Below, piece by piece: positions 1 to 3,601 of a stretch of 3,601 nucleotides of DNA (the first letter of the stretch is position 1; every line of letters starts with the position of its first letter). Origin of the DNA: a virus (taxonomy: Duplodnaviria > Heunggongvirae > Uroviricota > Caudoviricetes); the IMG/VR virus record IMGVR_UViG_2663763280_000008, positions 1 to 3,601 of that record; one strand, written 5' to 3'. The position numbers and the translations under genes are program-made. The notes under the pieces are model-generated. The model worked only from the letters and a program-made list of their open reading frames with translations. It was not told the DNA's origin and made no database searches.

Positions 1-42
1 TCACCCGCGCGCCAGTAACAGCATCAATACGTTGCCGTTATG

Positions 43-96
43 TTGATTCAGCGTCTGGCTGGCTGCTCCCATCGCGGTATAAATTGCGTGATCCAT
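43..96 (-). pseudogene. flgF: Fragment matching the 5' start of the flagellar rod gene flgF (first 18 codons), collinear with the flgE fragment
   Basis: Minus-strand ATG at 94-96 lies 19 nt downstream of the flgE-like stop and reads MDHAIYTAMGAASQTLNQ, identical to the E. coli FlgF N-terminus as I recall it. It then diverges (HNGNVLMLLLARG*) and ends at a TGA at 1-3. Positions 43..199 together look like an intact copy of the flgE-flgF junction and nothing more. Confidence 0.5.
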
Positions 97-115
97 TGAG
101 CTATCCCGTCAGCGA

Positions 116-199
116 TTAGCGTAAGTTAACCAGCGTGTTGAGGATCTGGTCCTGGGTTTTGATGGTCTGGGCGTTAGACTGATAGTTACGCTGGGCAAC
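116..199 (-). pseudogene. flgE: Fragment matching the 3' end of the flagellar hook gene flgE (last ~27 codons plus stop)
   Basis: Minus-strand frame reads ...[27 protein letters not shown], with TAA at 116-118. This matches the enterobacterial FlgE C-terminus as I recall it (...[29 protein letters not shown]). The residues upstream (RLYRAIVYC) do not match FlgE, so similarity begins at about 199. Confidence 0.55.
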
Positions 200-219
200 G
201 CAGTAAACAATGGCCCGGT

Positions 220-334
220 AAAGCCGCTATTGGTCGTCTGAAAGACGAGGAACTGGCGCAATATAATTTGTGGCTGGATTACCTGGACGCACTGGAGCTG
301 GTTGATACCTCCAGTGTGCTAGATATTGAATGGC

Positions 335-363
<29 letters not shown>
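220..363 (+). pseudogene. 3'-terminal fragment of a tail fibre assembly (Tfa) gene, plus strand, convergent with the minus-strand fragment
   Basis: Plus-strand frame (open from 178, no start codon) reads ...[47 protein letters not shown], with TGA at 361-363. It carries the same Tfa C-terminal motif (W..Y..L..VDTS...DIEWP.PP). The last 5-6 codons of each Tfa fragment are simply the antisense of the other, which places a tail-to-tail junction at about 345. Confidence 0.5.
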
Positions 364-620
<257 letters not shown>

Positions 621-652
621 GCGGATGCGCGCATTGAATACGTAGGCAATGG

Positions 653-1264
653 CTACATTAACGAAGCGCAAAATATGGGCTGGTTGCAGCGTTTCTTCCT
701 TAACCTGTCGCCAATGCCACCGGAAATAATCGTTTCGTTGATATACGGATAGATCGTGATTTCTTCGCCAAGATAGCTGGCGGCTCCCACCCAATGCGGG
801 CCGCTGGTCTGCAGATTGATGGACATGCCGATCATGTGGCGGCTACATGGTTTGGCATCGCTTATCAGTCGCTCAAGTTCCAGATAGGTATCTTCAGTGA
901 TGCCCTGGTCCTGCACGCCGATATCCAGGCGAAACGTGCCCGGTGTTTCTCCGGTCTGCCACCACTCAATAATGCGGATCAGGAATCCGAACGGCTCCAC
1001 CACCCGCCGCACGGCACTGGTGGTCCCTTTATGCTGATGAATATAAAAAGCATCCTTCACCACCTGGCGCTTGACGCTTTCAGTCCAGCCCTCGTCCCAG
1101 CGATCCACAGAGAACGCCCAGGCGAGATAAGGCAGGAAACTGACCGGACAGGTTGCCGGATTCCACAAGTCACGAAGCGGCACCTGCAGATCAGAAATCC
1201 CGCTGCAGGTTTGCGCCAGTCGGCGCTCCAGTGGTGTTGAACCCGGTGGCAGCAGACTATTCAT
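653..1264 (-). CDS. I: Phage tail/baseplate protein I (P2 gpI-like); the last ~29 codons look non-native
   Basis: 203-aa ORF, ATG at 1262-1264 with GGAGGA 4 nt upstream, stop at 653-655. The N-terminal two thirds carry a gpI-like pattern ([10 protein letters not shown]...RDLWNP.TCP...[16 protein letters not shown]...). The P2 protein is about 176 aa as I recall, and the tail after ...ITIYPY (about 656-742) has no obvious family character and runs into the mosaic region. Confidence 0.75.
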
Positions 1265-2165
1265 CCGTTCCTCCGTTGGTTACGCTCCACTGCGTACATG
1301 ATGCCGCCTGTGTTTTGTTCAGGACCACATCCGCCAGAGGAGAAGCCAGCTCCACACGCTGCACCCCCTCAACATGCAGGGCGGCAAAAATGGCGCTACG
1401 GCGAATATCCCGACCAAGACGCGTCTGACTGGCGATGTACTTCTGCAGGCTGGCTTTTGCCGCTGCCATTACCGGCTCTGCTTCCGGTCCAGGATAGAGA
1501 AAAATGGTGGCTTCCACGCGATACGGGATGATTTCTGCGCTGCGAACCGTAAGACGGTCAGCCACCGGGCGGACGTTCTCACTGTTCAGAGCTTTTTCCA
1601 CCACGTCCAGCAGGTCTTTTTCTGCAGTTCCATCGCCTTCGCGGCTAAGGACAGTCAGCACCACCTCTGCAGGTGCCGGGCTGGTTGCACTGGCATCCGC
1701 CACCCGACCGTCGGCGCTTCGGGCATGAAATTCATAAGCTGCAGTTGGCCCCGCAACAGAAAGCCCTTCAAAGGCCGCAGGCACACGCAGGCGCAACGCT
1801 TCATCGCTTTCCATCACAGCTGCAACGGGCGGCACAGCATCATTATCAGCAGGCGTCACCGTCAGGCGTGTCACGTTGTAGTTGGCAGCGAGCTGGTCAA
1901 GATCGCCGCCCATCGCGTAAGCCACCATCACCGCCTGCGCGGCTTCGTTAATGCGCTGGCGCAGAAGCAACTCACGGTAAGCGTTCTCCTGCAACAATTT
2001 AGTGGCGGGTTCAGATTCCAGTTCCAGCGTGCGGATCACTGCTTCCTGCTCATCTTTCGGATGAAGCGCCACAAATTCTGCCTTGCGTTCGGCAAGCAGC
2101 GTCTCAAAGTCCGGCACATCCACAATCTGCGGTGCAGGCAACTGCGAAAGGTCAATCACTGCCAT
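1257..2165 (-). CDS. J: Phage baseplate assembly protein J (P2 gpJ-like, Baseplate_J family)
   Basis: The six-frame ORF spans 1257..2204, but the likely start is the internal ATG at 2163-2165 (MAVIDLSQLPAPQIV...), which has AGGAG 6 nt upstream and gives 302 aa, close to P2 gpJ length. The N-terminus resembles the gpJ family start as I recall it (M..IDL.QLPAP). TAG stop at 1257-1259; the 3' end overlaps the I start by 8 nt. Confidence 0.85.
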   Translation of the reverse strand: MAVIDLSQLPAPQIVDVPDFETLLAERKAEFVALHPKDEQEAVIRTLELESEPATKLLQENAYRELLLRQRINEAAQAVMVAYAMGGDLDQLAANYNVTRLTVTPADNDAVPPVAAVMESDEALRLRVPAAFEGLSVAGPTAAYEFHARSADGRVADASATSPAPAEVVLTVLSREGDGTAEKDLLDVVEKALNSENVRPVADRLTVRSAEIIPYRVEATIFLYPGPEAEPVMAAAKASLQKYIASQTRLGRDIRRSAIFAALHVEGVQRVELASPLADVVLNKTQAASCTQWSVTNGGTDE

Positions 2166-2511
2166 TCTCTGCTCCTGTTGATACGGAAAGGGACACAGGC
2201 ACACCGTTATTCCGCCGCCCGGTCAGCTCCACCACCATTGAACCGTCAAAATTGCTGTTGATGGTGATGGAATCCAGCGTCAACCGTGGCTCCCAGCGAC
2301 TCAGCGCCACATACACTGCCGACATGACCTGCAGGCGTAATGCCGGATTTTGTGGCTGATCTATCAGTGCCGACAGCAGGGAACCATATTCCCGGCGGGC
2401 AATACGGCTACCCTGCGGTGTCAGCAGAATGTCCCGCACCGACTGGCGCAGATGATCAATATCAGTAATGACTTTGCCGCTGGTATTGTTCATCCCGCTA
2501 TAAAGCGTCAT
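2152..2511 (-). CDS. W: Phage baseplate protein W (GPW/gp25 family, P2 gpW-like)
   Basis: 119-aa ORF, ATG at 2509-2511, TGA at 2152-2154. Size and motifs (...DILLTPQGSR..RREYGSLL..LIDQP.....L...) fit the GPW/gp25 family as I recall it. GGAGG lies 6 nt upstream of the ATG. Position between V and J matches P2 synteny; the 3' end overlaps the J start by 14 nt. Confidence 0.85.
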   Translation of the reverse strand: MTLYSGMNNTSGKVITDIDHLRQSVRDILLTPQGSRIARREYGSLLSALIDQPQNPALRLQVMSAVYVALSRWEPRLTLDSITINSNFDGSMVVELTGRRNNGVPVSLSVSTGAENGSD

Positions 2512-3086
2512 ATCGGGCCTCCGGTTGTATCGCCGCCTTTCAGGACGCCAGTATGCTGATGCGCATCAACCACGATCCCGTTAGAACTCATCGCTCCGCC
2601 GCCCTGGGTAACGCCACCATTGATCACCACTTCGCTGTTAATGCGCGTGCGGTCAGCCTCCAGTACAAACTCACTGGTTTTCATGGTGATGTTGTCAGCA
2701 GCCTCAATGACCATGGATTTGATGCCCCTGACATACCAGCGCCCGGTGGCGGGTTCGTATTCAAACCAGCCACCGTCAGGATGTTCTGTCACGCAGGCGT
2801 CCGCCGACGTCGACGGTGGTGCGAACTGATTCGAATAGACAGCGGGCAGCGCAAAGGCGGTTTCCAGATTGCCGCCCAGACTCAGCAGCACCACCTGCTC
2901 ACCTTCCGATGGTCGCCACCATGTACGGGCATTCCCGGCACGCAGCGTCAGCCAGCTGATCCAGTTGGTTTCAAGCTCGCCCGTTTTCACCCGGCAAAGC
3001 CAGTTTTCCCTGTCCACTTCGGTGACTACCCCTGTGCGGATCAGGTTGGTGATAAGGCGCATGATTTCGGTTAATTGTGCGTTCAT
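2508..3086 (-). CDS. V: Phage baseplate assembly protein V (P2 gpV-like baseplate hub/spike)
   Basis: 192-aa ORF, ATG at 3084-3086, TGA at 2508-2510. The N-terminus MNAQLTEIMRLITNLIRTGVVTEVD...CRVKTG parallels my recollection of P2 gpV (MN......IRTG..VE.D....CRV.TG), followed by a Gly-rich C-terminal region. The stop overlaps the W start as ATGA (2508-2511). No strong Shine-Dalgarno upstream, consistent with a promoter-proximal first gene. Confidence 0.85.
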   Translation of the reverse strand: MNAQLTEIMRLITNLIRTGVVTEVDRENWLCRVKTGELETNWISWLTLRAGNARTWWRPSEGEQVVLLSLGGNLETAFALPAVYSNQFAPPSTSADACVTEHPDGGWFEYEPATGRWYVRGIKSMVIEAADNITMKTSEFVLEADRTRINSEVVINGGVTQGGGAMSSNGIVVDAHQHTGVLKGGDTTGGPI

Positions 3087-3131
3087 AGGGAAAGGTTGCC
3101 ATCAGGGGAAGAAAGGCGGCAGTGCTGCAAC

Positions 3132-3151
3132 TTGTATCAGTGCTGATACAA
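3132..3151 (-). promoter_or_regulatory. Candidate Ogr/Delta-type late-promoter activator box (TGT-N12-ACA dyad) upstream of V, i.e. a P_V-like late promoter
   Basis: Seen in sequence: ttgtatcag-tg-ctgatacaa is a perfect inverted repeat with 9-bp arms (3132-3140 and 3143-3151), with TGT at 3133-3135 and ACA at 3148-3150 separated by exactly 12 nt. It lies in the 68-bp S-V intergenic gap, 4 nt past the S stop. Established knowledge: the P2 late promoters (P_P, P_O, P_V, P_F) carry a TGT-N12-ACA dyad centred near -55. Caveat: the dyad centre is only about 55 bp from the V ATG, so either the leader is very short or the spacing differs; no good -10 hexamer is obvious. Confidence 0.45.
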
Positions 3152-3154
3152 AGA

Positions 3155-3601
3155 TCACCCCGCCAGCCATTGCAGAATCATGTCGCGGGTCATTGCCTCA
3201 ACATCATCATTTACACCCAGAAGGCGACGCTCTGCGTAACGCACCTCCGGTCCCTTACGACTGACGCGATCTCGCAGGCCGTAATGGTGAACGCGGGCAA
3301 TGCGCTGCACCTTGCCTTCAAACTGCACGCTGGCAGAGTCGGTGCTGGCGGCAGTTTTCAGGTATTTTGTGGTGCGCAGCTTTGCAAACATCTGACGTTT
3401 GATGCGCCCCTTCTTGCTGCGTGCTGTTACCCTGCGCGGTTCATAACTGCTGCCATCTGGATTGCGCTGCATCCTGATATTCTGCTGCTGTGTCCGGCGC
3501 AGTTCCTGCGCCAGCTGGCGCATCATGCGGCTTCTCGTGGCTGGTTCCAGATTCGCCAGCAAGGCACTCAGCCAGTCGTCCACCTTCTGCAGTTCAGCCA
3601 C
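3155..3601 (-). CDS. S: Phage virion morphogenesis / tail completion protein, P2 gpS-like; 5' end lies at or just beyond the window edge
   Basis: Minus-strand ORF with TGA stop at 3155-3157, open to the window end; the first codon in the window (3599-3601) is GTG, so the true start is unresolved. About 148 aa, basic, with a QQQ..R.....NPDGS.Y.PRR segment and a ...RIARVHHYGLRD... segment consistent with my recollection of the Phage_tail_S family. Sits immediately upstream of V, as S does in P2 (R-S-V-W-J-I-H-G). Confidence 0.6.
   Translation of the reverse strand: MAELQKVDDWLSALLANLEPATRSRMMRQLAQELRRTQQQNIRMQRNPDGSSYEPRRVTARSKKGRIKRQMFAKLRTTKYLKTAASTDSASVQFEGKVQRIARVHHYGLRDRVSRKGPEVRYAERRLLGVNDDVEAMTRDMILQWLAG

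Follow-up and report, generated by a model that had tools for sequence, protein, structure and literature searches.

Transcription of the late genes of phage P2 is driven by four promoters that have the element TGT-N12-ACA in common and depend on the activator Ogr (PMC3931495). Partial dyads of the TGT-N12-ACA type, placed about 55 bp upstream of the transcription start, are found at the P_O/P_P and P_F promoters of P2, at pV/p12 and pJ of phage 186 (B sites, NC_001317), at Psid and PLL of P4 (Delta) and in PSP3 (Pag) and phiR73 (Delta). The late promoters of P2, 186, P4, PSP3 and phiR73 have a poor -35 region and need a small Cys4 zinc-finger activator. The activators themselves, Ogr, B, Delta and Pag, reportedly substitute for one another. 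P_O/P_P and P_F, together with their counterparts in 186, P4, PSP3 and phiR73, give messages with leaders of 23-40 nt and Shine-Dalgarno (SD) sites, whereas gene V has neither.

For the P_V promoter of P2, the RefSeq record (NC_001895) places an 'activator binding site' for pV at 10239-10266 (centre 10252.5) and the transcription start of the V operon at 10308, on the first base of the V coding sequence and 55.5 bp from the centre of the site. The same 55.5 bp separate the centre (3071.5) of the box shared by PO and PP (TGT 3063 ... CCA 3080) from each of the two starts annotated there, 3127 and 3016, while the PF start lies 56.5-57.5 bp from the centre of its box. The boxes of P2 and 186 carry one mismatch to TGT-N12-ACA (CCA for ACA), and P_V of P2 reads TTGT-N11-ACAA, so that the spacing rule is looser than the consensus implies. 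Leaderless mRNAs of mobile elements in E. coli, such as lambda cI transcribed from P_RM, Tn1721 tetR and P2 V, have their 5' end on the A of the AUG and no SD. A passage of PMC4633059 that cites Christie and Calendar 1985 lists P2 with the few genes known to be leaderless in E. coli. Literature searches returned no direct match for a leaderless P2 V, and its status therefore rests on the RefSeq annotation and this one secondary citation.

The stretch of DNA analysed here, termed the window, comprises 3,601 nt (positions 1 to 3,601 of IMG/VR record IMGVR_UViG_2663763280_000008) and contains the following late genes:

3155..3601, minus strand: S, tail completion, last gene of the upstream late operon (Pfam Phage_tail_S, 7e-42)
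2508..3086, minus strand: V, baseplate spike of 192 aa, first gene of its operon (Pfam Phage_base_V, 6e-18, and GpV Apex)
2152..2511, minus strand: W, baseplate wedge, overlapping the V stop codon (open reading frame; Pfam GPW_gp25; annotation of phage 500465-1)
1257..2165, minus strand: J, baseplate (open reading frame; Baseplate_J domains; annotation of phage 500465-1)
653..1264, minus strand: I, with its last ~25 codons replaced at the junction with an flgH fragment

Over 1250-3601, the S-V-W-J-I block shares 99.1% identity with Escherichia phage 500465-1 (Peduoviridae, Wadgaonvirus); its identity is 96-97% to a set of Klebsiella prophage-derived phages and ~82% to Fels-2 and SopEPhi. At least 80% of the window was found in one place in 583 of 5426 complete E. 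coli genomes. Phage 500465-1 displays the full P2 gene order. Its 'complete genome' (NC_049342) includes the host genes ypjD, grpE, nadK, recN, bamE and smpB within positions 1-8600, and thus represents a prophage region with flanking chromosome. A Klebsiella phage KP12 clone (OM835953) is filed under Vequintavirinae, and a segment of it is 96.9% identical to a P2-family prophage.

S and V are separated by a gap of 68 bp, which extends between the S stop at 3155 and the V start codon (ATG 3086-3084), both on the minus strand. The gap contains an inverted repeat:

3132..3151, minus strand: predicted activator box of the V-operon late promoter, sense strand TTGTATCAG-ca-CTGATACAA

The arms, TTGTATCAG at 3132-3140 and CTGATACAA at 3143-3151, are 9 nt long, 100% complementary and separated by a spacer of 2 nt. 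They hold the half-sites TGT (3133-3135) and ACA (3148-3150) with 12 nt between them, in the only match to TGT-N12-ACA in the whole window. A repeat search and a pattern search therefore agree on the perfect TGT-N12-ACA dyad that the initial annotation had reported from this gap, and the distance from the dyad centre (3141.5) to the A of the V ATG, which it had put at about 55 bp, was measured as 55.5 bp. The six bases of TGT-N12-ACA have no significance by themselves and prove nothing (0.86 matches expected per window, with at least one in 113 of 200 shuffles); the perfect dyad is significant. Inverted repeats with arms of at least 9 nt and a spacer of at most 6 nt are expected 0.108 times per shuffled window; when the 68-bp gap itself was shuffled by dinucleotides, 0.065% of 20,000 shuffles contained one. 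Two copies of the octamer CAGTGCTG lie 18 bp from each other, one at the dyad centre (3138-3145) and one at 3120-3127 (promoter positions -41 to -34), maybe by chance; CAGCACTG is also present inside the PF box of Fels-2.

The dyad is highly likely to be the activator site of a P_V-type late promoter of the Ogr/B/Delta family, belonging to a P2-family (Fels-2/Wadgaonvirus-like) prophage in which V transcription would start on or within 1 nt of the AUG. It is a TGT-N12-ACA dyad in front of the late morphogenetic operon V-W-J-I, at the place of P_V in P2, and is accompanied by a poor sigma-70 core; the S-V palindrome is thus very probably an ordinary element of a well-understood kind. The initial annotation had proposed an Ogr-type box equivalent to P_V, situated where P2 carries that promoter. 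The pV site and the S-V order of P2 are indeed equivalent, and position, conservation of the box through promoter replacement, sister boxes and a cognate Ogr_Delta gene all agree with this proposal.

Comparison with the late promoters of P2 and 186, the check that had been recommended for this locus, matched the 55.5-bp geometry of P2, while the 186 gap is a poor match. P_V of P2 is located directly upstream of an orthologous V, with its site centre 55.5 bp from the ATG, no SD and the operon order V-W-J-I, as observed in the window. In an alignment of V from the window, Fels-2, P2 and 186, all four proteins begin together at M1 N2, and their start codons are therefore orthologous; window V and P2 V share 46% identity. 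The -10 hexamer is weak in both promoters (CAATCT in P2 P_V and CAACCT in the window). In contrast, the P2 P_V box is barely symmetric whereas the window box has 9-bp perfect arms, and the promoter flanks cannot be aligned except for GCAAyCT near the -10. A terminator and the moron orf30 lie between S and P_V in P2, where the window has its 68-bp gap and no terminator. The window box is a better match to the consensus than the prototype, given the mismatch in the P2 and 186 boxes and the N11 spacing of P2 P_V. In the RefSeq record of 186, sites for the B protein are marked at pV/p12 and pJ, and none is marked in the gap before orf32, the V homologue (9660-9728); this equivalent of the S-V gap, TTGTGTGAACCACCACC, presents TTGT at the usual place with no ACA half-site at N12.

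Closer relatives display the same arrangement. The S-V gaps of Fels-2, SopEPhi and 500465-1 (Felsduovirus, Wadgaonvirus) consist of homologous DNA of equal length, with the box in the same place and a -10 region, GGCAACCTTTC, identical to that of the window. The Fels-2-type box, TTGTGCCA-ctgc-TGGCACAA, has 8-bp arms as compared with the 9-bp arms of the window. No promoter feature is annotated in the Fels-2, SopEPhi and 500465-1 records.

Conservation of the box was determined in a sample of IMG/VR comprising 80 loci for each V type (window-type, P2-type and 186-type). All 80 sampled loci whose V is at least 97% identical to window V carry an exact TGT-N12-ACA whose centre precedes the ATG by 54.5-57.5 bp, most often by 55.5 bp. 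Among these 80, the box is kept in 13 variants (19 loci) whose upstream DNA is only 24-40% identical without gaps, which is no better than random. In 119 unique V upstream sequences exact matches were located solely at 52.5-57.5 bp, with none at other offsets within -130 to -1. In RE2010, SEN8 and Cartapus, where a moron is inserted between S and V, the box stays with V and not with S. The S-V gap is a recurrent insertion point for such cargo, which is divergent from V like P2 orf30; in the loci examined the morons extend over 2038-2967 in RE2010, 2038-3071 in SEN8 (an FRG-domain protein) and 2038-2668 in Cartapus. Moron insertions were also observed in IMG/VR loci. With each insertion the promoter DNA is new and unrelated, yet the box and the -10 register are equally far from the V ATG.

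For the core promoter, 58 non-redundant sequences from upstream of V (<80% identity), drawn from all three V families, were aligned without gaps on their ATG codons to give a profile. The elements that this profile helps to delineate in the window are as follows:

3116..3122, minus strand: CTGCCGC at -36 to -30, at best a weak -35-like element, homologous to TTGCCGC at -35 to -29 in most P2- and 186-type V promoters
3093..3098, minus strand: -10-like hexamer CAACCT at -12 to -7 from the A of the V ATG, in the register of the 58-sequence profile
3084..3086, minus strand: V start codon, its A (3086) being the predicted transcription start (P2 start annotation, N-terminus alignment, no SD)

The profile displays TTGT at -65 to -62, an A-rich stretch at -49 to -47, T at -35 (83%) and the block GgcATCcTT, in which position -11 is A in 76% and position -7 is T in 90% of the sequences. 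The pattern A-N3-T at -11/-7 (±1) is present in 57 of the 58 relatives, compared with a mean of 7% at control offsets. CAACCT of the window matches the -10 consensus at three of six positions, and the commonest hexamer among the 58 relatives is CATCCT. A scan for sigma-70 consensus promoters on both strands of 2950-3300 found none, as expected of a promoter that is proposed to depend on an activator. TTGCAG at -44 to -39 was considered as a -35 element and rejected, as it lies 26 nt from the -10-like hexamer.

The initial annotation had noted that V lacks a clear SD, and no AGGA, GGAG or GAGG was found within 18 nt of its ATG; in the same window, W and I are preceded by GGAGG and J by AGGAG. 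Only three of the 58 V relatives present an SD-like 4-mer, which is located too far upstream. Together, the A-N3-T register and the missing SD are what would be expected of a family in which RNA polymerase starts on the V AUG throughout, and V mRNA is predicted to be leaderless in this phage type. This prediction derives from geometry and conservation, in which it differs from the known leaderless mRNAs, including that of P2 V. The near absence of a 5' untranslated region had been regarded as unusual when the dyad was first described; the P2 layout, with its start on the first base of V at 55.5 bp from the site centre, is identical, and P2 is cited as leaderless, so that the lack of both 5' untranslated region and SD is the family norm. 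An open reading frame of 43 aa (2971-3102, minus strand), with its ATG at -19 and overlapping the V start out of frame, was also considered as an upstream reading frame; it is unsupported in relatives with different promoter DNA and was dismissed as probably spurious.

The alternative that best withstands these data retains a genuine Ogr-type box and displaces the start from the V AUG, either upstream, leaving a short leader, or into V, with translation from a downstream codon. The start of V is predicted here from geometry, and the PF distance of P2 indicates a play of ±2 nt; in addition, the old S1 mapping behind the P2 annotation is of limited resolution, and the sequence TATGAA, which overlaps the V ATG, could act as an alternative -10. 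This reading is nevertheless unlikely, considering that the A-11/T-7 register relative to the ATG is kept in all but one of the 58 relatives, that SD-like sequences are nearly absent, that the M1 N2 N-terminus is conserved in four divergent V proteins and that the P2 start is annotated on the ATG. A leader of 1-3 nt would, moreover, still be functionally leaderless.

A second alternative regards the dyad not as a protein site but as a hairpin, in RNA or DNA, located where the S-operon transcript ends, which could function as a terminator, processing site or stabiliser. The sense RNA could form a hairpin of 8-9 bp with a 4-nt loop, and the window type has no other terminator after S: no convincing terminator was found at the S-V junction, the scan giving one weak candidate inside the 3' end of S. 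However, the stem is A/U-rich with three G-C pairs and is followed by GUUGCAGCAC rather than by a U tract, which explains why the terminator scan is silent at the dyad; a Rho-independent terminator was rejected on the same grounds, there being neither a G+C-rich stem nor a U tract. The gap folds no better than its shuffles (z -0.67), and an Rfam search of the gap gave no match. When a moron is inserted, the distance of the box is fixed to the V ATG and not to the S stop.

The pattern of conservation within the box also bears on this question. The 19 distinct classes of P_V box share T-TGT-R-Y-C-A-N4-T-C-A-Y-ACA-A, and every class has T before TGT, a base that played no part in their selection. 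The positions kept among the 19 classes are limited to TTGT/ACAA and the R-Y positions. Complementarity of the inner pairs is seen in 4-12 of the 19, and at pair 9/16 a C/C mismatch is conserved, so that the ability to form a hairpin is not the conserved trait. Changes between the window-type arms (TTGTATCAG/CTGATACAA) and the Fels-2-type arms (TTGTGCCA/TGGCACAA) are mirrored, with AT-to-GC replacements at symmetric positions that keep the 8-9-bp symmetry, and the box of Yersinia phage MLG42 has a G.T at one pair (G-U in RNA). Both observations speak for a hairpin and give a small hint of selection for symmetry in the window/Fels-2 lineage; most other boxes of the family are far less symmetric than the window and Fels-2 types. 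The symmetry of the window box, with its 9-bp arms, greatly exceeds that of most family members, and a perfect symmetry is not explained by the protein-site model, since the family keeps a non-complementary C/C at pair 9/16. On balance, a hairpin function in place of an activator site is very improbable.

A different hairpin is present in P2- and 186-type V upstream regions, where a G+C-rich 9-bp stem, TTGCCGCYGG-N6-CCGGCGGCA, occupies the -35/-10 spacer (-34 to -11) of most sequences and is followed by TCCTTTCC. Its folding is better than that of shuffled DNA in the P2 and 186 types (z -2.4 and -3.8, respectively) as opposed to the window and Fels-2 types (z +1.3 and +0.7). This spacer hairpin looks like an embedded terminator of the upstream operon, and its loss from the window and Fels-2 types suggests that S-operon read-through into V is likely there.

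The source contig, CCCB01000232.1 (9106 bp, assembly GCA_000945835.1), has an anomalous structure. Prophage homology on the gene I side ends near 717-731, and the left 730 bp of the window are a patchwork of 100-230-bp pieces of unrelated core genes: positions 1-730 contain pieces of the E. coli genes flgE/flgF (41-200), tfa (tail-fibre-assembly genes, 201-427), bglB (428-610) and flgH (611-716). The C-terminus of the I open reading frame is chimeric and unique. On the other side of S, the contig continues into a 1.08-kb internal piece of rpoB and then into moaA-ybhK-uvrB. These junctions occur in none of the 5426 complete E. coli genomes, and the 427/428 junction has no exact match in GTDB representative genomes. 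The contig is most likely a misassembly. What the initial annotation had read as a loss of the fibre genes thus becomes unreliable, as does the idea of a decayed prophage, an assembly artefact being the most likely origin of this patchwork of gene fragments.

As the source contig holds only S-V-W-J-I of the late genes, the regulon was examined in relatives. In the 38-kb locus of 500465-1, bare TGT-N12-ACA gives 10 matches against 9.1 expected, three of the 10 being located in gaps where P2 has late promoters; such counts are uninformative, and the signal resides only in the positions and in the extended motif. TTGTRY-N8-RYACAA, in contrast, gives three matches in this locus against 0.09 expected, a number reached by none of 100 shuffles. 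One site precedes V, another precedes the sheath gene and the third separates the scaffold gene from the large terminase gene; these places correspond to the PV, PF and PO/PP gaps, and Fels-2 has exact boxes at the same three gaps.

The distribution of the extended motif argues against a third alternative, in which the dyad is the site of another regulator, either a host dimer of the CRP, FNR or LexA type or a phage repressor. CRP recognises TGTGA-N6-TCACA (TGT-N10-ACA), LexA CTGT-N8-ACAG and FNR TTGAT-N4-ATCAA. Perfect palindromes of this size are common among dimeric regulators, and TGT/ACA also belong to the CRP consensus. In the dyad, however, TGT and ACA are 12 and not 10 nt apart, neither CTGT...ACAG nor TTGAT...ATCAA is present in 3132-3151, and over the 38 kb of 500465-1 the extended motif is confined to the three late-promoter gaps, a pattern of late activation rather than of immunity or host control. 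Another regulator is accordingly very improbable, slightly less probable even than a hairpin. A chance palindrome without function, which the 0.86 minimal motifs expected per window and the 9% of shuffled windows with a 9-bp perfect inverted repeat might evoke, is refuted for practical purposes and retains a negligible probability, as 0.065% of gap shuffles reach the dyad and its position is kept in all 80 sampled relatives, including those with unrelated flanks.

The activator expected for an Ogr-type site was also sought, as the initial annotation had recommended. Phage 500465-1 encodes, after gene D, a protein of 72 aa with a match to Pfam Ogr_Delta (9e-21), 56% identity to P2 Ogr and the four Cys residues conserved, and an Ogr_Delta-type activator gene is annotated in Fels-2. 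The search for an ogr/delta homologue was therefore successful in the relatives, while the 9106-bp, chimeric source contig contains no ogr gene. Of the 5426 complete E. coli genomes, 2071 contain a P2-type ogr/ogrK gene (at least 95% identity) and 175 contain the allele of 500465-1. Given how widespread P2-type ogr/ogrK is, activation of the box in trans by the Ogr of a co-resident P2/P4-type element is plausible.

In P2-family late transcription the activator contacts the C-terminal domain of the RNA polymerase alpha subunit (rpoA109 phenotype). By analogy, a small Cys4 zinc-finger activator (Ogr/B/Delta/Pag) would bind the quasi-symmetric box in the S-V gap, probably as a dimer, and would be supplied either by the phage's own gene, in late infection or upon induction, or by a co-resident P2/P4-type element. 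Positioned at about -55, the activator would recruit the RNA polymerase holoenzyme, through the alpha subunit as in P2, to the poor -35 and the weak -10 (CAACCT, 3098-3093). The V-W-J-I(-H-G) transcript would then begin with the A of the V AUG or no more than 1 nt away from it. V would thus be translated from a leaderless mRNA without an SD, while W, J and I would be translated from ordinary SD sites or by coupling. The sequence of the box, its position and conservation, the sister boxes and the Ogr_Delta gene of this phage type are observed; that an activator binds the box and is required, that it touches alpha and where exactly transcription begins are inferred.

Box and -10 register keep a fixed distance to the V AUG, and the SD is likewise missing, even where unrelated sequence, along with a moron, has taken the place of the promoter DNA. 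A leaderless V could thus be an obligatory design trait of the whole P2 family rather than a quirk of P2, a generalisation that is put forward tentatively and is open to doubt. If it were true, only activator-initiated transcripts would yield gpV, and S read-through would not, since initiation at an internal AUG is inefficient when no SD precedes it; the dose of the spike would then be tied strictly to Ogr. The results confirm existing understanding without changing it and their practical value is small. They allow the S-V gap to be annotated as a P_V late promoter in a very common prophage type of E. coli, Klebsiella and Salmonella, and gene V of this type to be annotated as leaderless rather than as having a wrong start. 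They also provide a sharper motif for the group, TTGTRY-N8-RYACAA, which picks out exactly the late promoters. Unrelated promoter sequences that retain one geometry constitute a natural experiment on what Ogr-type promoters need.

A similar layout was observed at the large terminase gene, P. In 500465-1 (PO/PP box 27791-27810, terL ATG 27856) and in Fels-2 (terL ATG 19747) the centre of the box lies 55.5 bp from the gene P ATG, and both phages have TAGGTT at -12 to -7, while P of P2 has a 23-nt leader. The N-termini of the P proteins align from M1, and gene P may represent a second leaderless late gene in the Fels-2/Wadgaonvirus lineage.
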